Assembly (NCBI GenBank): GCA_964507275.1
Contig: CAZDPG010000001.1
Span: 547,555 to 611,554, forward strand
Direction of reading: 5' to 3'
Source of the DNA: an uncultured Candidatus Saccharibacteria bacterium
GTDB taxonomy: Bacteria > Patescibacteriota > Minisyncoccia > Phycocordibacterales > Phycocordibacteraceae
Length of the DNA stretch: 64,000 bases
Under the pieces are notes generated by a model that saw only the letters and a program-made list of their open reading frames with translations, had not been told where the DNA came from and ran no database searches. Below are positions 1-58,977 of the stretch, piece by piece; position 1 is the first letter of the stretch; every line of letters starts with the position of its first letter. The position numbers and the translations under genes were made by a program.

Positions 1-16
1 TGTTGGCTCAGTTGGT

Positions 17-1600
17 ATGGTCGTTGATAAGAAACACCTCTTGAGTAAAAGGTGGCTCAGTATCTACTTATTCCGTGATGAGTCTGATAATCAAATTAAG
101 ATTGACCTCCGTTCAAAGAAGATTATCTCCGACCCTAAGTCGGTGTTCAACAAAACAAACTGCGCTTACTTGGTTGACTACGCGACTCTAAGCGTGGAAG
201 AACAAAATGTTATTTCTGAAAACACCCTCTACAAAAACAAGGATTCTTTTGTTGGATACGTTACGTCAGGTTCAAACATCAACACCATTAACTTTTCAGT
301 TTTAAGAGATACTGGTGGCGAGGCAAACCAAATATCTGAGGGTTCTGTGCTTAGAACTACGATATATGGCAACGAAACTCTCTATCAGGTGATAAACGGA
401 AACACCAAAGAAGAACACCTTGAGAATTTTGATACTCACGGTTTCGTGGTGGGTATCGCAAGGAAACTCGGTAAATACAACCGAACACTTAAGACGCTGG
501 ACGTTAGCAAGTGGGTTCCCTCCATATACTCACCGTTATTTTTCGCCAATAACGCTGTTGTAACTCCCGCAAAGCTTAGGGAAATTGCCCGAGACTCTGT
601 TGGTAGATTGCCGAACTCAGATTACGAAATACCGATTAACGATATAAATTCTATTGTTACGCACAACACCGCTATCCTAGGCATATTGGGTATCGGTAAG
701 TCGTGCCTTGCATATGAACTCATAAAGCGCGTAACTGACGAAAACATAAAGGTTATCGCCATAGACATAACCAACGAATACAAAAAGGAACTACCGCCTT
801 ATATACCTACAGCGGGCGGGATAGTCTCTGATGATGAAAATGCTTTTAACGACATAAATACCCGTTACGAGTTCATTCATACAGAGGGAGCAGGAGCGGC
901 GGCAAAAGAGAACCCTGATAAAAGCGGTAACCTTGCTGAGTATAAAGTTGCGGTACACAAAGACCTCTGCCAGTTTTTGTTCGGAACAGACGAGGTACCC
1001 GAGAACAAGGACTTTGAAGATACTAAGAAAGTAAGAATTTATAACGTTGACTATCACAAGGCGTCTAGGGGCGAAAAGATTGGCTATAAGGTTCTTACAA
1101 CCGACCTAACTCAAGCTGAAAAGACTAGGGTTATAACCGAGGAGCTTTTCAAAATCCTGATGAAAATTCCGTTGGCAGACGAGAAGAAAGCAAAAGTATT
1201 CGTGGTCTTTGAGGAGGCGCACTCGTTGATACCTGAATGGAATTCAGTCGCAAGTGAGGGGGACAAAACAGCCGTAAACGGAACGGCCAAAGTAATCTTG
1301 CAGGGTCGCAAATACGGTCTCGGAAGTATGGTTATTACCCAAAGAACTGCGAACGTAAGCAAAAGCATTTTGAATCAATGCAATACAGTGTTTGCTCTAC
1401 GCGTCTTTGACGATACGGGAAAGGACTTCTTGGCAAATTACATAGGTAGGGATTACGCAGATACTCTCGCTACTCTTGAGGAAAGGCACGCAATTGCTAT
1501 AGGAAAGGGTTTGAGGCTAAGACAGCCAGTCATTGTTCAGCTTAACCAGAGAGAAAATCTACTTCCCGAACCTACGCCTGAACCCGAGGGAGTAGTCTAG
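17..1600 (+). CDS. HerA/FtsK-like P-loop ATPase (DUF87/AAA-like domain family)
   Basis: 527-aa ORF. Walker A GILGIGKSCLAYEL and Walker B KVFVVFEEAHSLIP are present. C-terminal ITQRTANVSKSILNQCNTVFALRV signature is characteristic of HerA/DUF87 ATPases. Lies in an AT-rich segment unlike the rest of the window. The true N-terminus may lie upstream of the window. Confidence 0.55.
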   Translation: MVVDKKHLLSKRWLSIYLFRDESDNQIKIDLRSKKIISDPKSVFNKTNCAYLVDYATLSVEEQNVISENTLYKNKDSFVGYVTSGSNINTINFSVLRDTGGEANQISEGSVLRTTIYGNETLYQVINGNTKEEHLENFDTHGFVVGIARKLGKYNRTLKTLDVSKWVPSIYSPLFFANNAVVTPAKLREIARDSVGRLPNSDYEIPINDINSIVTHNTAILGILGIGKSCLAYELIKRVTDENIKVIAIDITNEYKKELPPYIPTAGGIVSDDENAFNDINTRYEFIHTEGAGAAAKENPDKSGNLAEYKVAVHKDLCQFLFGTDEVPENKDFEDTKKVRIYNVDYHKASRGEKIGYKVLTTDLTQAEKTRVITEELFKILMKIPLADEKKAKVFVVFEEAHSLIPEWNSVASEGDKTAVNGTAKVILQGRKYGLGSMVITQRTANVSKSILNQCNTVFALRVFDDTGKDFLANYIGRDYADTLATLEERHAIAIGKGLRLRQPVIVQLNQRENLLPEPTPEPEGVV

Positions 1601-1846
1601 GAATTCAGGTCGTAAAAGTGATAAAATAGCTTTGGTTCTACAAGCCTAACCCCTAAGCAATGAGGCCTAGGGTATGGCACATAAATTCCCACGCAAATAG
1701 AAGCGGCCACATAAGCCGACATTCATTTGCGTGGGTCTGTATCCGAAAGGTTACAGGGTAATTTCCGAAAGGGAGTTGCCGTCGGTCTTGTGTGGCCACT
1801 TCTGTTTCCACGCTAGGCTCTTTACTAGAAAACCCACGCAAACAAT

Positions 1847-2092
1847 ATGTTAGACCAAGTAATTATTAGCGGCCTTTCTGGTGCGCTGATTATCGTGTAT
1901 TTTTTTGGACTTGGAATTATCTTTAGGATTTTCCGAGACCACCGAGACAAGGGCTTGAGTTGGAAAGAAAGCTTCAAGAGCAACGTTAAGGGGGTTAGGA
2001 GTTGGATATTCTTCTCTTTTGCCGCTCTCGTTACCTCAGTAATTGTTCTCGGCATTGGAACTTCTATCCTAGATAGTATTGGTTTGATTTAG
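1847..2092 (+). CDS. small two-TM membrane protein (holin-like or toxin-like), hypothetical
   Basis: 81-aa ORF with two hydrophobic helices (GLSGALIIVYFFGLGIIF and IFFSFAALVTSVIVLGIG) separated by a basic loop. AT-rich context. Confidence 0.4.
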   Translation: MLDQVIISGLSGALIIVYFFGLGIIFRIFRDHRDKGLSWKESFKSNVKGVRSWIFFSFAALVTSVIVLGIGTSILDSIGLI

Positions 2093-2097
2093 GTAAA

Positions 2098-2230
2098 GAA
2101 AATGTCGGAAAATGTCTGTTCTGGGAGGTAGAAGATATAGGAAAATATCGGTTTTTGACGCTATAAAAATGGCTGATAATGGCTGTTTTTAGAAACCTCC
2201 AATTGGTGGAAAATGGCGGAATTTTGGTGG
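2098..2230. repeat. iteron-like array, 7 copies of a ~10-11 bp motif AAAATG(T/G)C(G/T)G arranged as three tandem pairs plus one single
   Basis: Copies read directly: GAAAATGTCGG at 2098, GGAAAATGTCTG at 2107, GGAAAATATCGG at 2140, AAAAATGGCTG at 2165, ATAATGGCTG at 2176, GGAAAATGGCGG at 2208, AATTTTGGTGG at 2220. Sits in the AT-rich gap between two convergent small genes. Confidence 0.6.
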
Positions 2231-2244
2231 TATCTCAACACCAT

Positions 2245-2523
2245 TTAGTTACGCGTGTTTTTAAGCAAGCTATGCAAAAGCTGTTCATTATCAACCTCAA
2301 TTGAGGAAACAGCGATATTTATTTCACGCCCCGTCTTTAATTTCAGCTTCTCCATTTTGTTGGAGTAGTAATAAGTTGGTTTTTCTCCCTTTGGCGTACT
2401 TGTTCCGACTATCACCTCTAAACCAGAGCCGAAATCAAAATCACGCTCAAGCTTGGCGATATTTGCCTCAGTAAGAGGTCTTTTATCCTTATTGGCGGTT
2501 CGTTTAAGCTTTGCTGTTTTCAT
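2245..2523 (-). CDS. small basic hypothetical protein (possible DNA-binding protein)
   Basis: 92-aa ORF with Lys/Arg-rich N-terminus (MKTAKLKRTANKDKRPL). AT-rich. No family recognised. Confidence 0.35.
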   Translation of the reverse strand: MKTAKLKRTANKDKRPLTEANIAKLERDFDFGSGLEVIVGTSTPKGEKPTYYYSNKMEKLKLKTGREINIAVSSIEVDNEQLLHSLLKNTRN

Positions 2524-2680
2524 AGCGTTTGTTGGCAGAATTTACCCTGTAGGCGTGAATTCTCCGTATTTGCTTATCAATATCATAGCAAAATAGAACT
2601 AGATTGTGATTGAGGCTTCTCTGGGGGTTCGGGGTATAGAATGATGTCTCACAAAGTTAAAGAGGAGTACCATATGAGGA

Positions 2681-3811
2681 ATGGAACCGCTCGCCGCCAG
2701 GATACGCCCACGGAAAATAGACGATGTCGTCGGACAAGAACATCTTGTGGGCGCAGGGAAACCGCTTCGCATCGCGATAGAGAAGAAGCACAGGTTCTCA
2801 TTTATCCTCTGGGGTCCTCCAGGAACAGGGAAGACAACCATCGCGCGCATCTATGCCCGCGCGCTCGATGCCGAGCTCTTCGAGCTCTCGGCAGTGTCGG
2901 CAGGGAAGGATGATATACGGAAGATCATCTCGACGGCAGCAAACGGAAAAGAAAAAGTCCTCTTTCTCGACGAGATCCACCGATTCAATAAGAGCCAACA
3001 GGACTTCCTCTTGCCGTACGTGGAGAGCGGAGAGCTCACTCTCATCGGTGCGACGACCGAAAATCCGTCATTCGAGGTCATCTCCCCGCTCCTCTCACGT
3101 TGCCGTGTGTTTGTGCTTGAACCGCTCTCTGAGGAGGCGCTCCGAGCCATCACCAAGCGAACCAAGATCAAACTGAAGAAAGATGCCTTCGATTGGCTCA
3201 TGGGGTACGCGAATGGCGATGCGCGCAAAGCGCTCGGCATGATGGAGGGAGCACAGAGCTTGTATGGGGAAGTGACGGTGGTGACACTGAATGAAGCGCT
3301 CGAATCGCCGCATCTGCGTTACGACAAAAAGGGAGAGGAGCACTACGATACCATCAGCGCATTCATTAAGAGCATGCGTGCATCGCAGGCCGATGCGGCG
3401 CTATATTATCTCGCGCGCATGGTCGAAGCAGGGGAGGACCCGCTCTTCATCGCGAGACGCATGGTGGTCTTCGCGTCAGAAGACGTCGGCCTCGCGCAGC
3501 CAACCGCTCTCGTAGTGGCAAATGCCGTTTTCCGCGCATGCGAGACAATCGGGTATCCGGAATGCGCTATCAGCCTCGCCCATGGTGTCGCGTATCTTGC
3601 ACAAGCGAAGAAAGACCGATCTGCGTACGACGCGCTGCGTGCGGTGCAAGCCGATGTACGCACACATGGCAATCTGCCCGTGCCGAAGAAGATACGTAAT
3701 GCCCCGACGAAGCTGCTGAAAGAGCTCGATTACGGCAAAGGATATGAAATGTATGCCGACGTCGAATCATATCTGCCGGACAAATTGAAGAAAAAGAAGT
3801 ATTTGAGATAG
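2681..3811 (+). CDS. rarA: replication-associated recombination protein A (MgsA/RarA AAA+ ATPase)
   Basis: N-terminus LAARIRPRKIDDVVGQEHLVG, Walker A GPPGTGKTT, Walker B LFLDEIHRFNKSQQD and the C-terminal MgsA helical domain. Confidence 0.9.
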   Translation: MEPLAARIRPRKIDDVVGQEHLVGAGKPLRIAIEKKHRFSFILWGPPGTGKTTIARIYARALDAELFELSAVSAGKDDIRKIISTAANGKEKVLFLDEIHRFNKSQQDFLLPYVESGELTLIGATTENPSFEVISPLLSRCRVFVLEPLSEEALRAITKRTKIKLKKDAFDWLMGYANGDARKALGMMEGAQSLYGEVTVVTLNEALESPHLRYDKKGEEHYDTISAFIKSMRASQADAALYYLARMVEAGEDPLFIARRMVVFASEDVGLAQPTALVVANAVFRACETIGYPECAISLAHGVAYLAQAKKDRSAYDALRAVQADVRTHGNLPVPKKIRNAPTKLLKELDYGKGYEMYADVESYLPDKLKKKKYLR

Positions 3812-3835: not shown

Positions 3836-4582
3836 TTGCGCTCATGGTATTCTCGACATATGTTTCCAACGATTACCCCGGAAATGGCATCTCTCCTCAT
3901 CCCGATTGGCGGGCTTGTCCTTATCTCAGCCGTCGCACGAACTATCCATTTCGAACTCTTTGAGAAATACTTCAAGCTCACGTTCGCGGATGCACCGGTG
4001 TGGTCCCTGTTCTATTTCGGCATATGGACGGCGCTCGTGGCACTCCTCTTCCCGGCGCAGGCACAGGCGCTCTTCGCCGACGTCTCGATCCTCGGATACC
4101 TCGTACTCGCGTTCATGCTCATCGTCGTCTTCCCGATGCTCTACCGCGCACTACGCGAGAGAGACGGAAGCCCTGAGTGGCTCATTGCTCTCTATCCGGA
4201 TGAAGGGATGCTCACACTCGGCGAGCGCTATATCCTGGCGAAGATAGCTGATGTCGCCTTCCAACAGCTCATCAGTGGCATCCTTATCCTTACTCTGTCT
4301 ACGGCCGGTGTATCGTATCCGGCCATCGTTGGAGTGTTCATCGGTCTTTTTGCCGCGGCGCATTTGTATATTTTCCGTACGGACGGTCTCCTCTGGGGTC
4401 TTCATTACACGACCTATGCTGCACTCGGCGGTTTCGCGTTCCCATTCCTGATTCTGTTCGTTCCTGGGGGCATCGTGTACGCCATCCTTATTCATATGTT
4501 CTTCTACGTTTTTTCCGGTATCTTCTTCGCAAAGTTGCCGCGACCAAGTACAACCATCGCCCACGAATTCAGCGGGACCTGA
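3836..4582 (+). CDS. polytopic membrane protein, hypothetical
   Basis: 248 aa with about 6 hydrophobic helices. No recognisable motif. Confidence 0.45.
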   Translation: MRSWYSRHMFPTITPEMASLLIPIGGLVLISAVARTIHFELFEKYFKLTFADAPVWSLFYFGIWTALVALLFPAQAQALFADVSILGYLVLAFMLIVVFPMLYRALRERDGSPEWLIALYPDEGMLTLGERYILAKIADVAFQQLISGILILTLSTAGVSYPAIVGVFIGLFAAAHLYIFRTDGLLWGLHYTTYAALGGFAFPFLILFVPGGIVYAILIHMFFYVFSGIFFAKLPRPSTTIAHEFSGT

Positions 4583-48816: not shown

Positions 48817-48819
48817 AGG

Positions 48820-48900
48820 TGCGCCCGGCAGGGAACGATCCTGCGACCTTCTCCTTAAAAGGGAGCTGCTCTACCAGCTGAGCTACGGGCGCGTGTATCT
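48820..48900 (-). tRNA. tRNA-Lys (anticodon TTT)
   Basis: Cloverleaf read from the reverse complement: GCGCCCG acceptor, anticodon loop CTTTTAA, T-arm GGATCGTTCC. No encoded CCA. Confidence 0.8.
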
Positions 48901-48926
48901 AACTTACTCTTTTTGCTCTCTTTTTT

Positions 48927-49880
48927 CTAGTAGCCGAAAGCATCTACGGTCTTGCCGCTCGCATCAAGGAGCTTCACGATCTCGTGCCGTGTGCGCCACA
49001 TTGAGTTCGATCGGTTGAGGTAAATACGCCATGCGTCTCCCTTGAAGTCGACGTCTTTCTGATGTGCTTCCATGCACCCGTTGTAATTGAGGTATTTAAT
49101 CATGAAGTCCTGGCACGATCCAGAAGCACTGACAGGAGGCGAAAGTGCAACTTGGCAGCGTGAGAGTTTATTCACGTACTCAATACACGCCACGTCACGA
49201 ACATAACCGGCACCATAGAGTGAGGTGAGCTCGTCAGACGGCATCGGACAGTTCTCGGGGAGTGGCGGATAGAACTTCTGGAAACTGCTGAAATAGCCGA
49301 TGCACTTATTTTCTCTGAATGAGGCACCAATCGGCGAACGGCCTGAGATGATGATTGCCCGAGTGCCGCCGCTAAGGAGGATGTTTTCAGAAGCGTTTAT
49401 GGTTCCTGAGATAGGCACCTCAGTGCCTTTCGGCAGGGTGACGGAATTTCCCGTTGCATCGCTCTTGATCGTCCATCCAGAGAGATTGATAGGGCTTCCT
49501 GCATTTCCCGAGACGCGGAGCTCAATGTATTCATTCTGAGGATCTTCCGATCCCGCGCCGGAGACGTAATGATTCATCGTTACCACACCGCGATATGGTG
49601 AGATGACGCCAAATGCCGTACCGCTTATAAGGGAAGGATAGGTCGTATCCACTCCTCCTATCGCTCCACCGCCGCTTGTGGATCCAGGGAGCGAGACATT
49701 CGTTCCTCCTATGCCAAATGGCGCTCGCGGAAGCGAGAGATACGTGCCGCCGCCGAGCTCCTCAGGTTGTGCCAGTTTCGGTCCAGAAAATGCGAGCGGG
49801 TGTATTGGGCCGCCGGTGGCGATCCATATAAGGAAGATAAAGACGAAGACGCCTATGAAAAACCACGCATCATGCTCCAT
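48927..49880 (-). CDS. membrane-anchored lamin-tail-domain (LTD)-like protein
   Basis: N-terminal TM, then NEYIELRVSGNAGSPINLSGWTIKS...RIYLNRS...EIVKLLDASGKTVD, which resembles an LTD fold. Confidence 0.45.
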   Translation of the reverse strand: MEHDAWFFIGVFVFIFLIWIATGGPIHPLAFSGPKLAQPEELGGGTYLSLPRAPFGIGGTNVSLPGSTSGGGAIGGVDTTYPSLISGTAFGVISPYRGVVTMNHYVSGAGSEDPQNEYIELRVSGNAGSPINLSGWTIKSDATGNSVTLPKGTEVPISGTINASENILLSGGTRAIIISGRSPIGASFRENKCIGYFSSFQKFYPPLPENCPMPSDELTSLYGAGYVRDVACIEYVNKLSRCQVALSPPVSASGSCQDFMIKYLNYNGCMEAHQKDVDFKGDAWRIYLNRSNSMWRTRHEIVKLLDASGKTVDAFGY

Positions 49881-49892
49881 ACGGGAATAGTA

Positions 49893-51221
49893 TCAAACTT
49901 CTCTAAGAAGTCGCTCAAGTTCCTCGCGGACAACCTGCGCATCGCTCCAGGGTACTTTCGACCCTTTTGGCCCCATGATGAAAGGATCAGTACCTTTACC
50001 AGAAATCAGGACGGCAATGCCCTGATTCCCAGCATCCCGAGCAGGGCCGAGAGATTGCGCACTCTTCGACATGCTCAGGGCAAGCCGCAGTGCCGCGCGG
50101 ATAGCAAATCGACGGTCCAGAATAATCTCTGGTGCGCGCTTCATTCCTGCTGCCATCGCATCGACTATTTTCTGAGGGTCTTCATCGTAGGGGTCTTCAT
50201 CAGTGAGGAATACCTTGTCACAAGCGTCGTCGGCAATGCGCCCCATTTCCGGGCGTTTCCAGGTATCACGGCCGCCTCCTGTGTTCCCGAGCACGCAGAT
50301 TTTCCGCCGCTTCGGAAAGGCGCTATAGAGTGCAGCGAGGGAGTCGGGCGTATGAGCGTAATCGACGATGGCAAGAAAATCTTGTCCAGCGAGAATGCTC
50401 TCGACACGGCCCCGCACAACAGGAAGCTGTGCGAGTGTTACCGCCGCCGTCTCAAGCGGCACGCCAAATGCTCCACAAAGCTTCACTGCGGCGAGTGCAT
50501 TCATCGCGTTGAATGTGCCCGGGATAGGGAGGGAGAAGTGCATTCCGGCATAATCGAAATGGACACTTGTATCATCTCCGGAGACATTTTCCAGTTCACG
50601 AGCGCCAAATCCAATTATCAGCGTGGCTGGGACAGAGAGAAGTGTTCGGCATTCAGGAATGTCTTCGTTCACAACGAGGACGCGCGTGCGTTTCGACGAG
50701 CGGGCAAGCGCGGTAACAATGACTTTTTTTGCAGCGACATATTTCTCGAATGAGCCATGGCTCTCAATATGTTCACGCTGAATGTTCGTTACAACGAGCC
50801 CATCGAGATTAAGAAACCAGTGGCGGTATTGCAGCACGCTTTCAGAGGTCACTTCGATAACGATGTGAGTACAACCCGCTCGAAGCGCTTTGCGCATGAA
50901 TGCCTGTGTAAAGCCGCGACCCTGGAGCGTCATCTTGTAGCGATTCGGCTCAGACGCATCCTCGATTGCGAAGCGTATGGTCGAAAGGAGGGCAGTCTTG
51001 TGTCCGGCGGCGCGTAGGATGGCGAAGAGCATTTCAGCGGTCGTCGATTTGCCTTTCGTACCGGTGACGCCGAGGACGACGAGCTTCCGAGCAGGGAAGC
51101 CATAGACAAGCGCCATGAGGAAAGCGAGTCCTGCGTGGTAGAGCGGTCGAAACGGTCGTACGACTGGCTCAGGCACGATCTTTTTCAGTATGCGGATGAT
51201 GCGATCTATAACTTCATACAT
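49893..51221 (-). CDS. Mur ligase family protein (MurE/MurF-like)
   Basis: GVTGTKGKSTT P-loop, a Mur ligase middle domain and a C-terminal domain. 442 aa. Confidence 0.7.
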   Translation of the reverse strand: MYEVIDRIIRILKKIVPEPVVRPFRPLYHAGLAFLMALVYGFPARKLVVLGVTGTKGKSTTAEMLFAILRAAGHKTALLSTIRFAIEDASEPNRYKMTLQGRGFTQAFMRKALRAGCTHIVIEVTSESVLQYRHWFLNLDGLVVTNIQREHIESHGSFEKYVAAKKVIVTALARSSKRTRVLVVNEDIPECRTLLSVPATLIIGFGARELENVSGDDTSVHFDYAGMHFSLPIPGTFNAMNALAAVKLCGAFGVPLETAAVTLAQLPVVRGRVESILAGQDFLAIVDYAHTPDSLAALYSAFPKRRKICVLGNTGGGRDTWKRPEMGRIADDACDKVFLTDEDPYDEDPQKIVDAMAAGMKRAPEIILDRRFAIRAALRLALSMSKSAQSLGPARDAGNQGIAVLISGKGTDPFIMGPKGSKVPWSDAQVVREELERLLREV

Positions 51222-51224
51222 ATC

Positions 51225-51770
51225 TTACTGTCGAGCAGAGAGCGCTGCTTTGAGTCGATCTTCTTTCCCCATAATACTTTCTGGGATTCCTTGCAGCGCT
51301 TTGCGCGATTCGCGTTCGGTGTATCCGAGCGCGACAAGCGTATCAAATACTTCATCATCGGTGCTGTCATGTGCGCGCGGTCCGACCTTGTCGGCGAGCT
51401 CAACGAGCATTTTCTCAGCGCTCTTCTTGCCGAGCCCGACGACTTTAGTGAGATAATTCAGATCGCGCTTGCCGATAGCCCCTTCAAGCGCCTCGCGCGG
51501 CGCGCGGCGCAGCACGGAGAGTGCGGTCTTCGGCCCGACGCCTGAGACGGTGAGAATGAGCTCAAAGAAGTCGCGGTCGGCGGGGTCAGCGAAGCCATAG
51601 AGCTCGATACCGTCCTGTTTGAGCACCATGTGCGTCGCAAGCGTTGCCTCAGAGCCGACAGAGAGAGCTTCCGGTGTGCTCGTGCGCACGTCGATGCCGA
51701 AACCAGCGACTTCGATGACAGCGCTTATCGGGCTGAGCGAAAGTACTTTCCCGCGGATCTGTCGAATCAT
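51225..51770 (-). CDS. ruvA: Holliday junction DNA helicase RuvA
   Basis: MIRQIRGKV, helix-hairpin-helix motifs (VSGVGPKTA), and a C-terminal domain III. Confidence 0.9.
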   Translation of the reverse strand: MIRQIRGKVLSLSPISAVIEVAGFGIDVRTSTPEALSVGSEATLATHMVLKQDGIELYGFADPADRDFFELILTVSGVGPKTALSVLRRAPREALEGAIGKRDLNYLTKVVGLGKKSAEKMLVELADKVGPRAHDSTDDEVFDTLVALGYTERESRKALQGIPESIMGKEDRLKAALSARQ

Positions 51771-51828
51771 GGGTCTATGGTACTACCATTTGCCAGCGAG
51801 CGGGAGATAGCGTATATATAGGAGACAT

Positions 51829-52095
51829 ATGGCAATAACCAGTTCAGCAAAGAAAGCAATCCGTTCATCGGCGAAGAAGCATGTCTTCAACCTGCGCCGC
51901 AAGGACGCTATGAAGGATACGACCAAGTCACTCACCAAGGCGCTTACCGCCAAGGATGTGAAGTCAGCCGAGAACCTCCTCCCGAAGGCGTATGCCGCGA
52001 TTGATAAAGCAAAGAAGCGCGGTGTCATCAAGGCGAATACTGCCGCTCGCAAGAAGAGCCGTCTCGCTCTCGCAATCAAGAAAGCGAAGGCATAA
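51829..52095 (+). CDS. rpsT: 30S ribosomal protein S20
   Basis: 88 aa, Lys/Ala-rich (AITSSAKKAIRSSAKK...). Confidence 0.9.
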   Translation: MAITSSAKKAIRSSAKKHVFNLRRKDAMKDTTKSLTKALTAKDVKSAENLLPKAYAAIDKAKKRGVIKANTAARKKSRLALAIKKAKA

Positions 52096-52102
52096 GGAAA
52101 AG

Positions 52103-52137
52103 AAAAACACGCGCCACTCCGGCGCGTGTTTTTCTTT
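52103..52137 (+). terminator. rho-independent terminator after rpsT
   Basis: AAAAACACGCGCC-actcc-GGCGCGTGTTTTTCTTTT. Confidence 0.7.
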
Positions 52138-52140
52138 TAG

Positions 52141-52212
52141 TGCCCTCGACAGGAATCGAACCTGTACCACCTCCTTCGGAGGGAGGTATTGTATCCATTC
52201 AACTACGAGGGC
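52141..52212 (-). tRNA. tRNA-Arg (anticodon CCG)
   Basis: Reverse complement GCCCTCG...CCTCC-CTCCGAA-GGAGG...TTCGATT...CGAGGGCA forms a complete cloverleaf. Confidence 0.75.
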
Positions 52213-52257
52213 AATGCAATCCCGAACACCATAATCCTAACCCTAAAATCGATTTAG

Positions 52258-52329
52258 TGCCCCCGCGAGGAATCGAACCTCGATTACGAACTCCGCAAGC
52301 TCGCGTCCTATCCGTTGAACGACGGGGGC
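52258..52329 (-). tRNA. tRNA-Arg (anticodon read as GCG; unusual, needs confirmation)
   Basis: Reverse complement GCCCCCG...CGAGC-TTGCGGA-GTTCG...TTCGATT...CGGGGGCA. Confidence 0.6.
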
Positions 52330-52345
52330 AGTACCTACCTGTATA

Positions 52346-52819
52346 TCAGAATCCGAGCCACGCCGCTACCAGGTCAGGGAATGAGTGGTGGTGCTCGAGC
52401 TCATCAACATGCTGTACTAAATATCCGTAGACGACATCGACATCGACTCCTTCGAGGGGAATCATTAGGTGCGGCGAGTGCCATGTCTCGGTTTTTATAG
52501 AGAGTACAGGGGGAAGTTTCCCCTCAATATCCTCCAGGACAGAGAATGACATCATGCGTTCGAAGGGATGAAGCGCGTCGCCGATCATGAGTCCGGTCTC
52601 GACGATGCGGAAGCGGTGGACCGGAGGTTTTTTGGTCGCGTGGAGCGCCATCGCCGCGACGGCGATGATGATAAGAATCGCAAAGAGGTAATTGCCGAAA
52701 AGTGTGGCAGCGACCGCGCCGGCGACAGCGACTATGCCGAGCGTCCAGTACCAATCAGAATCCTTCGGCTCGTGATCGTATTCGCGCCCCTCCCATTCGA
52801 TAATGACGTTCTGTGCCAT
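52346..52819 (-). CDS. hypothetical membrane protein
   Basis: 157 aa with two TM helices and a His-rich C-terminus. Confidence 0.45.
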   Translation of the reverse strand: MAQNVIIEWEGREYDHEPKDSDWYWTLGIVAVAGAVAATLFGNYLFAILIIIAVAAMALHATKKPPVHRFRIVETGLMIGDALHPFERMMSFSVLEDIEGKLPPVLSIKTETWHSPHLMIPLEGVDVDVVYGYLVQHVDELEHHHSFPDLVAAWLGF

Positions 52820-52865
52820 ACAGGAAGTATATCACCGTGCATATGCACGGTGATGAAATAAAGTG

Positions 52866-52952
52866 CGGAGAGGGTGGGATTCGAACCCACGGTCCCGTTT
52901 CCGAGACTCCAGTTTTCAAGACTGGTGCATTCGACCGCTCTGCCACCTCTCC
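52866..52952 (-). tRNA. tRNA-Ser (anticodon TGA), type II with long variable arm
   Basis: Reverse complement GGAGAGGTGGCAGAGCGGTCGAATGC...CTTGAAA...GGTTCGAATCC...CTCTCCG. Confidence 0.85.
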
Positions 52953-52963
52953 AGGTTTTTTAG

Positions 52964-53266
52964 TTACGCCTTCGCTGATGAATCATGCGCAGGCGCATGA
53001 GACGAGTGCGAGCGGCGTCGCGCATGAGGGGAGCTGGGTCGGAACCAGACGAGATAGATGATTTCGACGATTCCGAGCGTGTTGAGGATAAGGAGGGCAA
53101 TGAACCACTCTTTCTGGCTGCTACGGGCAGCATGCCAGAGAGCGAATCCTTTGAGGACGGTAGTCCAGATAGCCACGATGATGAGGAAGGGAAGGACCGC
53201 GCTCATGAATCCAAACGCAAAAGGAGACTGCGCTGCAGAGGAGTAGAAGGGCGAAAGGTAGTGCAT
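52964..53266 (-). CDS. small hypothetical membrane protein
   Basis: 100 aa with two TM helices. Confidence 0.4.
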   Translation of the reverse strand: MHYLSPFYSSAAQSPFAFGFMSAVLPFLIIVAIWTTVLKGFALWHAARSSQKEWFIALLILNTLGIVEIIYLVWFRPSSPHARRRSHSSHAPAHDSSAKA

Positions 53267-53295
53267 ATGCGCGGATTATACCATACACTGCAACC

Positions 53296-53709
53296 ATGCG
53301 GTATCTCGGTATTGATTATGGGAGTTCGAAAATCGGCCTCGCAATCTCTGATGAGGCGGGTACGATGGGGTTTCCGCACTCAATTGTATCGAATACGCCG
53401 CGCGTCGCTGATGAGCTCTGTGCCCTTATCGCGCGAGAGCATATCGGCACGGCAGTTATTGGTGAATCGCGGAACCTGGCGGGCGGTGAGAATCCAATCG
53501 CAGAAGATGCTCGCGTCCTCGGTTCCCTGATTGCCGAGCGTTCTGGCATACCGGTAGCGTATGAATCAGAAGTGTTCACGAGTGCTGAGGCACGTCGCGC
53601 GCCGGAGAAGCAGATGAAGTCGCGTGCGCCGAAAGTGCACAGGAACGTAGATGCATCAGCGGCAGCCCTTATTCTTACTAGTTATCTTTCACATACCGAT
53701 CATGAATAA
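53296..53709 (+). CDS. ruvX: putative pre-16S rRNA nuclease / Holliday junction resolvase-like YqgF (RuvX)
   Basis: MRYLGIDYGSSKIGLAISD RNase H-like N-terminus. 137 aa. Confidence 0.85.
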   Translation: MRYLGIDYGSSKIGLAISDEAGTMGFPHSIVSNTPRVADELCALIAREHIGTAVIGESRNLAGGENPIAEDARVLGSLIAERSGIPVAYESEVFTSAEARRAPEKQMKSRAPKVHRNVDASAAALILTSYLSHTDHE

Positions 53710-54040
53710 GCCGAAGATTTCAATAGACGAATTCAGTAAGATAGAAGTGAGTATCGGCACCGTGCGTTCGGCTGAGCGAGTACCCGAGACAGACAAGCTT
53801 ATTAAATGCATCGTCGATTTTGGTGAGGAGAGTGGCTCGCGCACTATCGTCTCCGGTGTTGCGGAGTACACTATGGCTGAAGACCTTGTTGGCCGACAGC
53901 TCGCCTATGTCACGAATCTCGAGCCACGCGTTATCAAAGGGATCGAGTCGAACGGCATGCTTTTTGCTGTCGGATCAGGCGAGTCTTTTGCGTTTCTCAC
54001 ACCCGATAGGGAGGTACCTCCCGGCACGAGTGCACATTAA
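53702..54040 (+). CDS. tRNA-binding protein (CsaA/EMAP-like OB fold)
   Basis: Start at MNKPKISIDEFSKIEV. VGTVRSAERVPETDKLIKCIVDFGEE is the Myf/CsaA-type tRNA-binding domain. Confidence 0.7.
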   Translation: MNKPKISIDEFSKIEVSIGTVRSAERVPETDKLIKCIVDFGEESGSRTIVSGVAEYTMAEDLVGRQLAYVTNLEPRVIKGIESNGMLFAVGSGESFAFLTPDREVPPGTSAH

Positions 54041-54078
54041 TCGCATCAAGGTGCACTCACGCGCGTTATACTGAATAC

Positions 54079-55173
54079 ATGTCTCCCGTGTTCAGTGAAC
54101 GATTGCGCGCAGCATTTGCTCCGCCGCAGTACATAGCACTTCCGCTCTCCGGAATCGACCTCTCGACAAGCGGTGTCAAAGCCGTGCGTCTTTCCGCCGG
54201 CGTGCATGGTCTCACTCTCGCGAGCTACAACGAAGCACGGTTACCGGCAGGAGCGTTCACTGACGGCGATATTATCGATCGCGAAGCAGTTACCGAGGCG
54301 ATTACTATCGCTGCGGAAGCAGCTGGTATAGACGCGGCGAATGTCGCCTTGCCTGAATCAAAATCATATCTATTCGAAACCGCCGTACCAGGTGATCGGA
54401 AGGCCGAGTGGCGCACGTCCATTGAGCAGAAACTCGATGAGTTCATACCACTCCCGCCGTCGGAGATCGCTTTCGACTTCGTCACTACCGGACGTTCTGA
54501 ACGCGGGGAAGCTCTCATTGCCGGTGTGGGTCTCGCGCAGCGCATCGTCGGCGAAACGCTCTCAATATTCGATGCGGCTGATATTAATGTCCGCTCCCTT
54601 GAAGGGGAGACATTCGCTTCCTCGCGCGCGCTTCTTCCGTATGGCGACGAGTCGACCGTGCTCATCATCGATGTCGGTAAGACGACGACGAAGATAGCCA
54701 TCGTTTCTGCGCGCATACCGCGTTTCGCGACGACGATCAACATCGGCGGGCATGCACTCACGCTCGCCGTCCAGAAATATTTCGGTGTAACCGAAGCAGA
54801 GGCTCGAAAAGTGAAATCAGAACGCGGCATTGTGCCAACAGTAGGGAATGAGGAATATCTCGCTGCCATGCTCTCGACAGTCTCTGCCATCCGCGACGAA
54901 ATCTCTCGGCACCTCAACTACTGGCAGGGACGATCTCTGCCGAAGGGCATTCACGAACCGGTGTCCCACGCTATTCTGGTCGGTGGCAATGCGTCAGTCC
55001 GCGGACTCCCTGAATATCTGGAAGGTTCACTAGGTATACCGGTTACGCCCGGCGATGTGTTTACGAATCTCGCGTCACGCGATACATGGGTCCCGTCGCT
55101 TGACTACACAGAGTCGCTCGCGTATGCCACCGCAATCGGCCTCGCATTGCGTGATCATATCCCGTATGTCTGA
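54079..55173 (+). CDS. pilM: type IV pilus assembly protein PilM (actin-like ATPase)
   Basis: 364 aa with an actin/FtsA-like fold. Precedes the pilN and pilO candidates. Confidence 0.75.
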   Translation: MSPVFSERLRAAFAPPQYIALPLSGIDLSTSGVKAVRLSAGVHGLTLASYNEARLPAGAFTDGDIIDREAVTEAITIAAEAAGIDAANVALPESKSYLFETAVPGDRKAEWRTSIEQKLDEFIPLPPSEIAFDFVTTGRSERGEALIAGVGLAQRIVGETLSIFDAADINVRSLEGETFASSRALLPYGDESTVLIIDVGKTTTKIAIVSARIPRFATTINIGGHALTLAVQKYFGVTEAEARKVKSERGIVPTVGNEEYLAAMLSTVSAIRDEISRHLNYWQGRSLPKGIHEPVSHAILVGGNASVRGLPEYLEGSLGIPVTPGDVFTNLASRDTWVPSLDYTESLAYATAIGLALRDHIPYV

Positions 55174-55720
55174 CGAGCTTACCAATCTGCTTCCTTTTGA
55201 GCGTAGCCACGCAGTGTCCCGTGACTATCATTTCCGGCTTGGTGTCGTGGCATTGGTGTTCGCCATCGCTCTTATCTTTACGGCCGCACTGCTTCTCGTC
55301 CCAACCTATGTATTTCTAACAGGAAGCGCAAAAATAAAAGGAACGCAGCTTGCGCATATAAAAGCGACCCTTTCGGCTTCAGACGAGACTGCGCTCTCTG
55401 CGCGTCTCTCGGCACTTTCGAATGATGCCAAGGCGCTCATTGCACTCTCGAATAAGCCTGCGGTGAGCAAGCTGGTGAGTTCCGCGCTTGGTATCCCGCG
55501 GCCCGGAATCGCCCTTTCTAGTCTCACGTATACACCGGCGGCAGGGAAGAATCCTTCGATGCTCGCTCTATCGGGTACAGCGGCCACTCGAGATGCTCTG
55601 CGTAACTACCAACTCGCGCTCCAGGACGCTCCCATCGCGAGCGCGGCGAATGTGCCGGTTTCAGCCTATGCGAAAGATACGAATATATCCTTCACCGTCA
55701 CCATACTGCTCACACCATGA
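55166..55720 (+). CDS. pilN: PilN-like inner-membrane pilus assembly protein
   Basis: Start MSDELTNLLPF overlaps the pilM stop. Single TM, then a periplasmic domain. Confidence 0.55.
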   Translation: MSDELTNLLPFERSHAVSRDYHFRLGVVALVFAIALIFTAALLLVPTYVFLTGSAKIKGTQLAHIKATLSASDETALSARLSALSNDAKALIALSNKPAVSKLVSSALGIPRPGIALSSLTYTPAAGKNPSMLALSGTAATRDALRNYQLALQDAPIASAANVPVSAYAKDTNISFTVTILLTP

Positions 55721-56247
55721 AATCTCCCACCATACATCTGCTGATAGCTCTCGCTGCAACGGTTATTGCACTTTCGGGATATACCGTCTGGTATGGAGCC
55801 GTTTCCGATAAGAGCAGGGAAGTAGCCGGTCTACAGAATCAGATCCTAGCGGCGTCTGAGACGGTGAGCCGCGTCGCGTCGGCGCGCGCGGCGCTTACTG
55901 AGATCGCCGGCGACGAGATGAAGGTGCGGAGCTACTTCGTGCCGGAGTCGGGTGTTGTCGCCTTCATTAACGATCTTGAAGCCCGCAGTATCGCTCAGGG
56001 ATCGACAATCGACGTCTCCTCGGTCTCGACCGGGGGAACCCCATCGCGTCCGGCGCTCATGCTCTCCATTACTGTTAAAGGTACGTTCGATTCAGTCATG
56101 AGGACCGTCGGTTCGATAGAGTATGCCCCCTACGACGTTCTCGTGTCGTCATTCTCGATTCGACAGGATGTCGAGGGTGTCTGGAGCGCTAGCCTCGGAC
56201 TACGGGTCGGTTCCGTGCCTATAAAATCGGCAACCAGCACACCATGA
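55717..56247 (+). CDS. pilO: PilO-like pilus assembly protein
   Basis: N-terminal TM, coiled-coil, then a β domain. 4-bp overlap with pilN. Confidence 0.5.
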   Translation: MKSPTIHLLIALAATVIALSGYTVWYGAVSDKSREVAGLQNQILAASETVSRVASARAALTEIAGDEMKVRSYFVPESGVVAFINDLEARSIAQGSTIDVSSVSTGGTPSRPALMLSITVKGTFDSVMRTVGSIEYAPYDVLVSSFSIRQDVEGVWSASLGLRVGSVPIKSATSTP

Positions 56248-56552
56248 ACTTTTCTCACCTTCTCGATGCTTTCTTCCGGCGCGCGCGATCATTCTCGGGC
56301 ATTGATCCCGCCCGTGATTGGCTCTTCTTGCTTATAAGCTCAACGCTCGTTCTCTCAGGCATCATCGTATGGAATGCGTGGGCATTCGACACTGTCGCAA
56401 GCGGCGGGACCATCGGCTCGTCGGCAACGAGCACCGCTCCCATCTTCGACCAGGCTTCACTTGAAACCATCCATGTTATTTTTGCCGAGCGTGCTGCTGA
56501 AGAAGAGAAGTATATGTCGGGTGTCTATCAGTACGCCGACCCTTCGCAATAA
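56244..56552 (+). CDS. small membrane protein co-transcribed with pilMNO, hypothetical
   Basis: 102 aa with one TM helix. 4-bp overlap with pilO. Confidence 0.4.
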   Translation: MNFSHLLDAFFRRARSFSGIDPARDWLFLLISSTLVLSGIIVWNAWAFDTVASGGTIGSSATSTAPIFDQASLETIHVIFAERAAEEEKYMSGVYQYADPSQ

Positions 56553-56584
56553 GCGGACACATGCGCTAGGCTAAAGAGGTGCGC

Positions 56585-56656
56585 GCCCCGATAGTTCAAT
56601 GGATAGAACAGCGGACTTCTAAGCCGTTGATGTAGGTCCGATTCCTGCTCGGGGCA
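56585..56656 (+). tRNA. tRNA-Arg (anticodon TCT)
   Basis: GCCCCGA...GCGGA-CTTCTAA-GCCGT...TCCGATT...TCGGGGCA. Confidence 0.75.
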
Positions 56657-56677
56657 CAGCTGGCATTTGCGAGCAGC

Positions 56678-56759
56678 GGGCATGTGGCGGAATTGGTATA
56701 CGCGTACGTCTCAGAAGCGTATGTCGCAAGACTTGGGAGTTCGAGTCTCCCCATGCCCA
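56678..56759 (+). tRNA. tRNA-Leu (anticodon CAG), type II
   Basis: GGGCATG...TACGT-CTCAGAA-GCGTA, long variable arm, GGGAGTTCGAGTCTCCC, CATGCCCA. Confidence 0.8.
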
Positions 56760-56783
56760 CTAAGTGTTGTATGATGCGAGAGC

Positions 56784-56856
56784 GCACCCTTAGCTCAGTT
56801 GGTAGAGCAACTCATTTACACTGAGAAGGTCGGGGGTTCGAGTCCCTCAGGGTGCA
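56784..56856 (+). tRNA. tRNA-Val (anticodon TAC)
   Basis: GCACCCTTAGCTCAGTTGGTAGAGC...ACTCA-TTTACAC-TGAGA...GGGGGTTCGAGTCCCTC...AGGGTGCA. Confidence 0.8.
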
Positions 56857-56895
56857 CTTGAAACGAAACGAGATTAGCCTTAGTTTCTTATAGAT

Positions 56896-57582
56896 ATGAA
56901 CGAAGCTTCGGGAGCCGCTTGCGTGGGCATTATCATGGATGGGAATCGTCGCTGGGCGCGAGCGCACAGTCTCCCTGTCTTTGAGGGGCACGCCGAGGGC
57001 TATAAAAAGCTCCAAGAAGTATTGCGCTGGTCGCGCGAGGCTCACATTGAGCACGTCGTCGCCTATGCGTTCTCCACGGAGAATTGGCAGCGTCCTGAAG
57101 AAGAGATTGGCTACCTGATGGGACTGCTCCGCTCCATTCTCGAGAAAGAGACGAAGAAGATGGTTGATGAACGAGTGCGCGTTCGTTTCATCGGCGACCT
57201 GACGCGCTTCAATGATGACGTCCAGACACTCATGGCGGATATGGAAAGAGAAACAGCCAAGGTGTATGACATCACACTCTACCTTTTGATGTCGTATGGC
57301 GGTCGCGCCGAAATCGTCGCGGCAACAAACGCACTTCTGGCCGAAGGAGCGGCTTCGGTCACCGAAGATGTTCTGGAAAAGAAATTCTGGTCGTTTCCGA
57401 TGCCCGATCCTGATCTCATCATCCGTACGGGAGGCGACAAGCGTCTGTCGAACTTTCTTCCCTGGCAATCGATCTATAGCGAACTGTTCTTCAGCGACTC
57501 GTTCTGGCCTGACTTTTCGCGTGGAGAATTCGATTCAATCCTTGCGGAGTTTAGTGCTCGCGAGCGTCGACATGGCAAGTAG
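56896..57582 (+). CDS. uppS: undecaprenyl diphosphate synthase (isoprenyl transferase)
   Basis: IIMDGNRRWA and ENWQRP cis-prenyltransferase motifs, plus RLSNFLPWQS. Confidence 0.9.
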   Translation: MNEASGAACVGIIMDGNRRWARAHSLPVFEGHAEGYKKLQEVLRWSREAHIEHVVAYAFSTENWQRPEEEIGYLMGLLRSILEKETKKMVDERVRVRFIGDLTRFNDDVQTLMADMERETAKVYDITLYLLMSYGGRAEIVAATNALLAEGAASVTEDVLEKKFWSFPMPDPDLIIRTGGDKRLSNFLPWQSIYSELFFSDSFWPDFSRGEFDSILAEFSARERRHGK

Positions 57583-57602
57583 GGAAGTGTACGCTTGAGG
57601 TA

Positions 57603-58346
57603 ATGGAACCATCTCTTATTTATGAGGACGAGAATGTTCTCGTTCTCAATAAGCCCGCTGGGCTTATTGTGCATAGCGACGGACGGACGGAGGAGTCATC
57701 AGTGGCAGGATGGGTCACCAAGCATTATCCGGCACTCGAGCAGGTTGGCGAGTCGTGGACGAGTCCGCAAGGGGAAATCATTCCTCGTCCAGGCATCGTG
57801 CACCGGCTCGACCGCGACACTTCTGGTGTGATGATCCTGGCAAAGACATCCGAGGCCTACGCTTTCCTCAAGGAGCAATTCCAAGACCGAACGACCGAGA
57901 AGACTTATCAGGCTTTCGTCTACGGACACCCCTCAAGGGATCGTGGCACGATTGAAGCGGAGATTGTGCGACTTCGCACCGTACCGCCGCGCTGGGGCGT
58001 TGCACGCGCAGGGGAGAATAAGAAACATCGTGTGGCCGTAACCGATTGGCGGGTGCTCTCCCGAGCCATCGATCCGGAGACAGGTCAAAAGATCACCTAT
58101 GTAGAAGCACGCCCCAAGACCGGCCGCACGCACCAGATCCGTGTGCACTTCAAACATCTCGGTTACCCGGTTGTCTGTGACAAGCTCTATGCGGCTACTC
58201 GCCCTTGCCTCCTTGGTTTCTCGCGCCAGGCGCTTCACGCTTCCTCGCTCGCTATCACACTTCCTTCGGGCGAACGCCACACCTTCGAGGCTCCGCTCCC
58301 TGGCGATTTCACTGTCGCCCTCGAGTCTCTCGGCGTGGCTGGCTAA
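57603..58346 (+). CDS. RluA-family 23S rRNA/tRNA pseudouridine synthase
   Basis: Catalytic motif HRLDRDTSGVMILAK. 247 aa. Confidence 0.85.
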   Translation: MEPSLIYEDENVLVLNKPAGLIVHSDGRTEESSVAGWVTKHYPALEQVGESWTSPQGEIIPRPGIVHRLDRDTSGVMILAKTSEAYAFLKEQFQDRTTEKTYQAFVYGHPSRDRGTIEAEIVRLRTVPPRWGVARAGENKKHRVAVTDWRVLSRAIDPETGQKITYVEARPKTGRTHQIRVHFKHLGYPVVCDKLYAATRPCLLGFSRQALHASSLAITLPSGERHTFEAPLPGDFTVALESLGVAG

Positions 58347-58389
58347 GGATTTGCCCTCCCGTGGGGTGCATGCTACAGTGCGCGCACAT

Positions 58390-58878: not shown

Positions 58879-58889
58879 TGTGCTTTCTT

Positions 58890-58977
58890 GCGCAGGTGGC
58901 GAAATTGGTAGACGCACTACCTTGAGGTGGTAGCTCCCGTTAAGGGAATGGAGGTTCAAGTCCTCTCCTGCGCACCA
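58890..58977 (+). tRNA. tRNA-Leu (anticodon GAG), type II, CCA encoded
   Basis: GCGCAGG...CTACC-TTGAGGT-GGTAG, long variable arm, GGAGGTTCAAGTCCTCT, CCTGCGCACCA. Confidence 0.85.

Follow-up and report, generated by a model that had tools for sequence, protein, structure and literature searches.

The closest described relatives of the locus reported here are, for its integration genes, the serine-integrase elements and prophages of the phiC31/Bxb1, SCCmec Ccr and XisF types and, for its ATPase, the HerA defence systems, in whose solved complexes the effector partners bind on the barrel face. The RNA motif that it carries, LOOT, is typed as a small RNA (sRNA) in Rfam (RF03000). To our knowledge, the mobile elements of the candidate phyla radiation (CPR; Patescibacteria) are poorly defined. 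Here we describe one of them in a stretch of 64,000 nucleotides (hereafter the window; positions 547,555 to 611,554 of contig CAZDPG010000001.1, assembly GCA_964507275.1) from an uncultured Candidatus Saccharibacteria bacterium. It is a large-serine-integrase integrative element, unusually small and in a little-studied phylum, and it is new to that group. Taken as a whole, the locus is probably a serine-integrase element that carries a HerA-type ATPase with a transmembrane (TM) domain, here called TM-HerA, as defence cargo, and in which LOOT acts as the leader of a small gene, orf81.

Window 1-2652 is foreign and is part of an integrative element inserted between the 3' end of a tRNA-Gly(UCC) gene and the host gene rarA of a Paceibacteria/Kaiserbacteria-like CPR genome, a conclusion that leaves very little room for doubt. 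Measured in 300-nt windows, GC content is 38-48% over window 1-2600 and 54-59% beyond about 2700. Parent contigs in groundwater metagenomes were recovered by exact-sequence look-up of RarA, and the window is identical to the main one (L001) starting at L001 position 7321. On L001 the low-GC block spans the distance from tRNA-Gly(UCC) to shortly before rarA, and the element could be delimited as L001:4542-9972 (5,431 bp), of which window 1-2652 is the right 49%; its GC content is 43.4%, lower than that of the left flank (50.8%) and of the right flank (55.5%). For window 1-2652 alone the value is 43%, with 53-56% in the flanks. An earlier note, made from the letters of the window alone, had read this segment as AT-rich and foreign, and as the right-hand part of a mobile element that ends at about 2600 where rarA begins. 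Composition, empty sites in siblings and an upstream serine integrase bear out that reading, with the exact positions now corrected to 2652 for the right edge of the element and 2681 for the start of rarA.

Sibling contigs share the synteny of the flanks (CCA-adding enzyme, UPF0102, trypsin-like protease, tRNA-Gly(UCC), rarA, HU, RNase Y, ClpP, pyrophosphatase and NusA), and three of them (L215, L222 and L221) keep it without the element. The 3' end of the tRNA gene (...CCCGCAC) directly abuts the ATG of rarA in L222 (L222:4929-5001), is separated from rarA by 30 nt in L215, and is followed in L221 by a 500-nt spacer with one small open reading frame (ORF) of 103 aa (L221:1900-2473). Insertion follows because these three siblings of the same synteny are without the segment, because the break falls exactly at the 3' end of the tRNA gene, and because an integrase and a rebuildable attP are present. 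The same observations refute the suggestion that the low-GC stretch is native to the host chromosome and was never inserted; every contig with an identical rarA has the segment too, as a native stretch would, but the empty sites, the exact break and the reconstructable attP leave that account with practically no probability. Conserved synteny of the segment across relatives, which the earlier note had set against its own proposal, was not found, and the segment is variably present. The junction of tRNA-Gly(UCC) and rarA is itself a variable spot among the siblings (L214, L221 and L222); at this site L214 has other cargo, an EamA transporter and a 225-aa ORF (L214:6744-9001). RarA homologues 86-94% identical to that of the window come from Kaiserbacteria, Paceibacterota and Minisyncoccia genomes.

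The attachment (att) sites can be read to the base. In L001, attL reads ...CCCGCAC joined to CAACAATCATTTC... and attR reads ...AGAATGATGTCTCAC joined to AAAGTTAAAGAGG..., while the empty attB is CCCGCAC joined to AAAGTTAAAGAGG. Joining the ends of the element rebuilds a 50-bp attP, GTTCGGGGTATAGAATGATGTCTCAC joined to CAACAATCATTTCTTTCCCCGAAC, in which two 19-bp imperfect inverted arms flank a 12-bp core. One dinucleotide, AC, occurs in all of attB, attL, attR and this reconstruction of attP. By its sequence, this predicted attP has the anatomy expected for a large serine integrase. The integrase itself was recognized by Pfam (E-values of 9.2e-33, 2.2e-16 and 6.5e-5 for its Resolvase, Recombinase and Zn ribbon domains) and by the PHROG integrase family phrog_95 (3.9e-93), with CcrB/XisF-like matches under the cut-off in NCBIfam, and it would insert a circular form through attP x attB recombination at the AC core. 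Two short contigs considered as circular forms, L217 and L219, proved to be linear fragments with host flank (a tRNA) or restriction-modification (R-M) genes.

The gene order is tRNA-Gly, serine integrase (minus strand), HTH_17 gene (plus), TM-HerA (plus), promoter-like box, LOOT, orf81, repeats, orf92 (minus), attR and rarA. The individual features are these (positions of the window unless L001 is named; HTH, helix-turn-helix):

L001:4470-4543, tRNA-Gly(UCC) gene; the integrase stop codon overlaps its 3' end
L001:4531-6288, minus strand, large serine recombinase of 585 aa with Resolvase, Recombinase and Zn ribbon domains, divergent to the HTH_17 gene
L001:6405-6599, plus strand, HTH_17/MerR-type gene of 64 aa; its stop codon and the start of the ATPase gene overlap (ATGA)
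L001:6596-8920, plus strand, full gene of the TM-HerA ATPase, 774 aa, HerA-type and predicted to be membrane-anchored
2-1600, plus strand, C-terminal 532 codons of TM-HerA (residues 243-774), with a HAS-barrel-like beta domain and a RecA-like ATPase domain
1619-1627, plus strand, extended -10-like box TG-n-TAAAAT, its end 15 nt ahead of the first base of LOOT
1643-1780, plus strand, LOOT RNA (Rfam RF03000) with hairpins P1-P4, 66.1 bits against a gathering score of 46.4, E 3e-10
1787-1846, plus strand, proposed 3' extension of the LOOT leader, based on inverted repeats, covariation, a permutation test, a base change in L217 and the z-score of the minimum free energy (MFE)
1847-2092, plus strand, orf81, 81 aa, with two hydrophobic segments (predicted TM helices), the gene following LOOT
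2097-2230, plus strand, degenerate direct-repeat array of GRAAAATGKCKG, between orf81 and orf92, whose 3' ends converge on it
2245-2523, minus strand, orf92, 92 aa, basic (pI 9.7), a putative ORFan
2627-2652, no strand, element-side half of attR, equal to the left arm of attP (GTTCGGGGTATAGAATGATGTCTCAC), placed by comparing the junction with the empty sites of L215 and L222; AC crossover at 2651-2652
2681-3811, plus strand, rarA/mgsA (MgsA_C, AAA_assoc_2 and AAA domains), host gene of the right flank outside the element, synteny kept in siblings

The HTH_17 protein was matched about equally by excisionase, MerR and mad1 models. It scored 28.5 bits against the excisionase-type model TIGR01764, whose cut-off is 28.8, and 1.7e-11 against mad1, and PHROG excisionase families matched it as well; it may be either a regulator of the operon, resembling MAD1, or a directionality factor.

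The HerA/FtsK-like ATPase with complete Walker motifs of the earlier note is the ORF at 17-1600 (plus strand). The HerA assignment stood, but the ORF is truncated by the start of the window: its frame is already open at base 2, and another 242 codons, with an 8-helix membrane domain among them, precede it upstream (L001:6596-7321). Neither this truncation nor the LOOT RNA at 1643-1780 had appeared in the note. The part in the window matches Pfam DUF87 (HerA central domain; 2.7e-9) and the PADLOC HerA model (1.6e-26), its Walker A and Walker B motifs are GILGIGKS and VFVVFEEAH, and in 99 sequences of the TM-HerA family GILGIGKS, VFEEAH and TQRTAN are invariant or nearly so. An AlphaFold monomer model built from 99 family members (pLDDT 85, pTM 0.71) superseded one from 15 sequences, in which the ATPase core was too poor (pLDDT 67). 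It has eight helices at residues 7-194, where hydropathy gives six or seven TM-like windows, followed by beta-rich domains at 201-425 and a RecA-like core at 440-760. Foldseek and a PDB sequence profile agree on HerA, the solved structures of SIR2-HerA and DUF4297-HerA being closest to the ATPase part, and the HerA clade is clearly nearer than FtsK, TraB-like and coupling proteins. As modelled, TM-HerA is a complete HerA plus an extra N-terminal membrane domain. Within that domain R10, Y17, G57, F65 and P68 are invariant in the family alignment and the loop EPYFTKPxDAIxNS nearly so, and because the domain itself is conserved in this way, the alignment suggests that it is more than an anchor. 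No C-terminal DNA-recognition domain follows the ATPase in the alignment or the model. Furthermore, the family comprises 712 full-length relatives of 750-790 aa, 45-74% identical, in CPR lineages, Bacteroidota, Bacillota, Campylobacterota and other phyla; this pattern indicates spread by horizontal transfer.

To place TM-HerA among its neighbours, 80 genome loci were surveyed, and 71 immediate upstream and 67 downstream genes were classified. De novo clustering of neighbours gave no universal one in the 80 loci, and a fixed partner was rejected also by tblastn with the element's own genes: the integrase, the HTH protein, orf81 and orf92 were matched in 7, 2, 0 and 0 of the 80 loci, respectively. 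Roughly 20 of the 71 upstream neighbours (an estimate from overlapping Pfam counts) are R-M components, often on the same strand and 0-30 bp away: Eco57I/MmeI type IIG enzymes, ResIII, N6_N4 and N6 methylases, specificity subunits, DpnI and Bpu10I. A SLATT_6 protein also occurs upstream, and the downstream neighbours include PD-(D/E)XK nucleases, DUF2779, ResIII, Schlafen/AlbA proteins and reverse transcriptases (RVT). A link with defence islands had been suggested in the earlier note, and the family does live in such islands, among R-M and other neighbours.

The partner gene that the note expected just upstream of the window, of the Sir2, DUF4297 or NurA kind, fared differently. Such a gene would make the locus a two-gene HerA defence system (Sir2-HerA, DUF4297-HerA or NurA-HerA), and the anti-phage HerA models of PADLOC and NCBIfam, together with the SIR2-HerA and DUF4297-HerA structures, are indeed the closest to the ATPase part. 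However, the recovered upstream sequence holds the 64-aa HTH_17 gene and the serine integrase; Sir2, DUF4297 and NurA are found neither there nor among the 71 upstream and 67 downstream neighbours, and no such partner recurs in the 80 loci. In addition, the defence-HerA models match only the C-terminal core of TM-HerA, at 57 bits against a cut-off of 850, and TM-HerA has an N-terminal membrane domain of its own. The two-gene account is refuted at this locus and has hardly any probability left.

Two loci, examined in detail, may serve as examples of the neighbourhoods. On the Arcobacter plasmid CP146529.1 (L220; 48373-66613), TM-HerA stands inside a type I R-M operon, after a CBASS cyclase (1.5e-190) and a 2TM effector (1e-79) and before a Schlafen-like protein and HsdR. 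CBASS, TM-HerA, the Schlafen/AlbA-like protein and SprT all lie between hsdS and hsdR there, as a compact plasmid-borne defence island. A Microgenomates locus (L021; 3622-13834) encodes a mad1-like HTH protein, PDC-S05 (RhuM-like), HsdR, a fused HsdM-S, TM-HerA and a Cas4-like nuclease; the layout of this operon is MADS-like, with the HTH gene first and the ATPase late, but without MAD6 and MAD7. In the model of MADS itself (methylation-associated defence system), MAD6, MAD7 and MAD8 are mandatory (bioRxiv 10.1101/2023.03.30.534895). Membership of the window element in that system was rejected, MAD6 and MAD7 being absent from it and the mad8 match being at P-loop level only (2e-12).

The content of the element also brings to mind a minimal self-transferring unit like the actinomycete integrative and conjugative elements (AICEs), in which a membrane-anchored FtsK/HerA hexamer would pump the excised dsDNA circle into a neighbour cell, as TraB or archaeal Ced does, with the repeat array as a clt-like recognition site and the integrase and HTH protein for integration and excision. 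There is indeed little in the element beyond int, the HTH gene, a membrane-bound ATPase belonging to the FtsK-HerA superfamily and a direct-repeat array; a serine integrase is combined with TM-HerA in six CPR elements, and TM-HerA has weak P-loop similarity to the CedD, VirB4 and TraG models. Yet a serine recombinase lies within 6 kb of TM-HerA in only about 15 of the 80 loci, the commonest neighbours being R-M and defence genes of the same operon, and the 72,556 plasmids searched hold one full-length copy, within the type I R-M operon described above. TM-HerA belongs with the HerA clade rather than with FtsK, TraB-like or coupling proteins, no DNA-recognition domain follows its ATPase, and the repeat array was not seen in other fetched loci. 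We regard self-transfer of this kind as unlikely, and the narrower proposal that TM-HerA is a conjugative FtsK-like translocase (TraB/AICE, TcpA or type IV coupling protein) was rejected, as neither its clade nor residence on plasmids or integrative and conjugative elements fits.

Searches of 50,697 phage genomes and of IMG/VR found no member of the family either. Judged from gene neighbourhoods, the pattern fits a gene of defence islands and not one of conjugation or of virions, and this genomic association tips the balance, if not by much, towards a defence role for TM-HerA. In such a role it would be cargo with an anti-phage or anti-plasmid function. The protein would form the hexameric motor of HerA, and its N-terminal 8-helix domain would adjoin the HAS-barrel-like domain and so take the effector's place; in this way the motor would have a direct coupling to the membrane, whether as pore, as effector or as conduit for DNA, and a separate partner would be unneeded. 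On the model, TM-HerA is a new architectural variant of the HerA defence-type ATPases.

The second subject of this study is the LOOT RNA, for which the searchable literature holds no functional text beyond its listing. The match in the window is full-length (model positions 1-121). LOOT, a tRNA-adjacent serine integrase and TM-HerA occur together in six CPR elements (the window, L007, L014, L016, L065 and L217/L218), and LOOT is missing in the TM-HerA loci of other phyla that have a serine recombinase. A pattern scan collected 127 LOOT loci, 120 from metagenomes and 7 from IMG/VR. Clustering of their neighbours found a large serine recombinase in 57 of the 127, mostly divergent and upstream, a ParB-methyltransferase in 30, a small-terminase-like protein in 26, a large terminase in 14 and an HTH_17 protein in 13. 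Because recombinase and terminase genes recur at LOOT loci, LOOT belongs, on this gene content, to the temperate phages and integrative elements of CPR. As TM-HerA is encoded in none of the 127, the ATPase appears to be one cargo among many. With the integrase-LOOT backbone in common with CPR temperate phages, the element may be a phage-derived mini-element or satellite.

A stronger version of that descent would make the element a decayed prophage or satellite whose ATPase drives virion morphogenesis or packaging, like inovirus pI/Zot or the packaging ATPase of a membrane virus, and whose small TM proteins serve in the coat or in lysis. The backbone does recur in terminase-bearing loci and in the 7 IMG/VR contigs, and inoviruses, which are small and integrating and have been reported in CPR, are marked by an FtsK-HerA-superfamily ATPase with single-TM proteins of 30-90 aa (PMC6813254). 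Against this, TM-HerA is without relatives in the phage collections named above and is encoded at none of the pattern-scan LOOT loci, and with both att half-sites intact the 5.4 kb form a complete unit, without Rep, capsid or terminase. A virion role thus seems very improbable; identity with inovirus pI/Zot was rejected after comparison with PHROGs, the phage collection and IMG/VR.

What LOOT does can be approached from its position. Of 123 loci, 58 have a -10-like box 15-22 nt upstream of LOOT, compared with 17 of 123 control windows, and the box at 1619-1627 is likely to be the promoter of a LOOT-orf81 transcript. A gene on the same strand follows LOOT in 95/110 loci, its start falling in a narrow range with a median of 76 nt past P3. 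By a simple hydropathy rule, TM or signal-like segments are present in 64 of 91 ORFs downstream of LOOT (70%), against 14% of those upstream and 22% of other ORFs, and the five TM-HerA elements examined (L001, L007, L014, L016 and L065) all fit this pattern of LOOT followed by a membrane protein, orf81 included.

The leader also appears to extend beyond the 121 positions of the Rfam match. In the window, 1787-1807 pairs with the apical region of P2 (1695-1715), and a U-rich tract comes next; both the helix and the U-tract lie outside the match. In 40 sequences this long-range 12-bp helix, between the apex of P2 and the segment after P4, is 88.5% paired, with compensatory changes at nine pairs and 55 double-change cells, where shuffles give 14.8 (none of 500 reaches the observed number), while slid controls are 38-57% paired. 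Just before the start of orf81, window 1832-1842 (ACCCACGCAAA) copies the 5' arm of P2 and is complementary to its 3' arm (1726-1736). Such a start-region copy, of roughly 10 nt, gives runs of at least 8 bp in 29 of 78 loci, where 200 permutations give 6.5 (maximum 14). L217 has an A-to-G change that is matched in each of the three segments (the two P2 arms and the start-region copy). The leader in the window has an MFE of -83.3 kcal/mol (z -6.2), with a fold that uses the long-range helix. A MAFFT alignment of three LOOT copies was unusable for structure, and no covariance model was built from it.

Given the -10 boxes, the same-strand downstream gene, the enrichment of TM segments, the covarying helix and the start-region copy, we consider it likely, though Rfam calls it an sRNA, that LOOT is a cis-acting leader. 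It would be the 5' leader of the orf81 mRNA, with three mutually exclusive helices (the P2 stem, the P2 apex with the 3' extension, and the P2 3' arm with the start-codon region), and switching among these would gate expression of the membrane protein by exposing or hiding the start region. As a general trans antisense of the integrase, LOOT was rejected, the mean run in 39 LOOT-integrase pairs being 5.15 against 5.29 when permuted. There is a 15-nt identity, TTCATTTGCGTGGGT, between the LOOT P2 3' arm (window 1722-1736) and the DNA across the integrase start codon (L001:6284-6298), by which LOOT could pair with the start region of the integrase mRNA; this identity is absent in L007, L014 and L217.

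The gene that LOOT precedes, orf81, has nine distant homologues of 73-104 aa and is probably a real gene, although it matches no family in Pfam, NCBIfam or PHROG. The earlier note had called its product holin-like; the two hydrophobic segments are there, but the element is without endolysin or lysis cassette, and the holin label was dropped. In the array beyond it, which the note described as seven iteron copies, a plus-strand scan (up to 2 mismatches) found six copies of GRAAAATGKCKG at 2097-2219, spaced by 10, 33, 24, 10 and 34 nt, and a possible seventh was seen by eye 10 nt further on, at 2218-2230. The repeats are thus real, and the array is the sole cluster of at least 4 such matches within 150 nt in 2.3 Mb of fetched loci, the motif having been defined after the region was seen; the iteron identity found no support, as no Rep or partition gene accompanies the array in the element and it was seen at no other fetched locus. 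The small basic protein of the note is orf92. It matches nothing in Pfam, PADLOC, NCBIfam or PHROG and has no homologue except a fragment of itself, and a promoter-like site lies upstream of it (2610-2582, minus strand); its coding status is uncertain.

Other features of the host flanks can be set down here. A 248-aa multi-TM ORF with no Pfam match lies downstream of rarA (window 3836-4582), and the genes between rarA and HU vary among siblings (NUDIX, DUF2238 and small ORFs). Eight tRNA genes stand in two clusters at window 48818-58977 (Lys, Arg x3, Ser, Leu x2 and Val). In L001 a 90-aa ORF between UPF0102 and tRNA-Pro has a weak HNH-endonuclease match (L001:2905-3177; 4e-4), and an Endonuclease_7 gene is found in the equivalent neighbourhood of the sibling L214; both are perhaps small nuclease genes of the homing type situated near tRNA genes.

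Several points weigh against the reading of the locus as a mobile element with defence cargo and a leader RNA. Current mobility is less certain because the circular form, that is the attP junction GAATGATGTCTCAC joined to CAACAATCATTTC, was not found in IMG/VR, and because the contigs with an identical rarA all carry the element as well. As for defence, neither PADLOC 2.0.0 nor NCBIfam 20 has a model of its own for the TM-HerA family, and the matches to existing models are the partial ones to the C-terminal core, far below cut-off, already noted. As for LOOT, the loci collected by pattern sample one subfamily, the TM calls on downstream ORFs combine the hydropathy rule with crude ORF calling, and the helix that precedes the U-tract might just as well terminate a free sRNA, with read-through. 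Finally, the repeat array and orf92 are not accounted for. A more ambitious combined statement, in which TM-HerA is a single-gene immune module (a HerA motor with a fused membrane effector or conduit, in R-M operons) and LOOT is at the same time a cis RNA switch of CPR phages and elements that gates membrane or secreted proteins, is one that we hold only tentatively, at somewhat less than even chances.

This work gives a CPR element whose limits are set to the base, together with its attB, its attP and an intact serine integrase, and that is directly testable; the integrase and its att set could also serve as a genetic tool in organisms that have almost none. If TM-HerA is defensive, it would represent a HerA architecture with a fused membrane domain as effector, in place of a nuclease or NADase partner. 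HerA proteins with such a fused domain form a large family that crosses phyla and occurs within R-M operons; the family is absent from the libraries searched, and no paper describing such proteins was found in the literature searched. The LOOT results may interest RNA specialists more than the original finding, since they give an orphan RNA motif a hypothesis that mutation can test, namely a leader switch for membrane-protein genes of CPR prophages, and such a switch may matter for superinfection exclusion or for the surface between symbiont and host.

How, then, does the locus compare with known systems? With the serine-integrase elements and prophages of the phiC31/Bxb1, SCCmec Ccr and XisF types it shares the three-domain recombinase (Resolvase, Recombinase and Zn ribbon), an attP of roughly 50 bp with imperfect inverted arms, a 2-bp core common to all att sites, the lack of long terminal direct repeats and a precise empty site in relatives. 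It differs from them in being only 5.4 kb long, without replication, capsid or transfer genes, in having a CPR host, and in its target, which is the extreme 3' end of a tRNA gene; targeting of tRNA 3' ends is more typical of tyrosine integrases.

Unlike SIR2-HerA/Nezha, DUF4297-HerA, TdpAB and archaeal HerA-NurA, TM-HerA has no separate effector gene, and it has a conserved 8-helix domain fused at its N-terminus. Like the defence genes embedded in R-M loci (PrrC in type Ic loci, and MADS), it is often last or internal in type I, IIG and III operons. The likeness to MADS extends to the mad1-like HTH_17 gene, which opens the operon of L021 and directly precedes the ATPase at the window locus. 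In contrast to those systems, R-M genes are missing altogether from the window element, and PrrC, an anticodon nuclease, has no sequence relation to TM-HerA. Streptomyces TraB of the AICEs, TcpA, the type IV coupling proteins and archaeal CedB are hexameric ATPases that associate with the membrane and belong to the same superfamily; a small integrating element can rely on one such FtsK-like translocase, and TraB recognises short direct repeats, whereas TM-HerA is of the HerA clade, almost absent from plasmids and linked mostly to R-M genes, not to integrases. Finally, the putative LOOT leader resembles riboswitches, translational operators and phage put/antitermination RNAs in having its own promoter, a structured 5' domain and a short fixed distance to the ORF, and is like cis-acting leader RNAs in its mutually exclusive helices, one of them over the start-codon region, and in the U-tract after a conserved helix. 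It departs from the known leaders in that its downstream genes are unrelated in sequence, with only membrane or secretion signals in common, and in that it resides on mobile elements.

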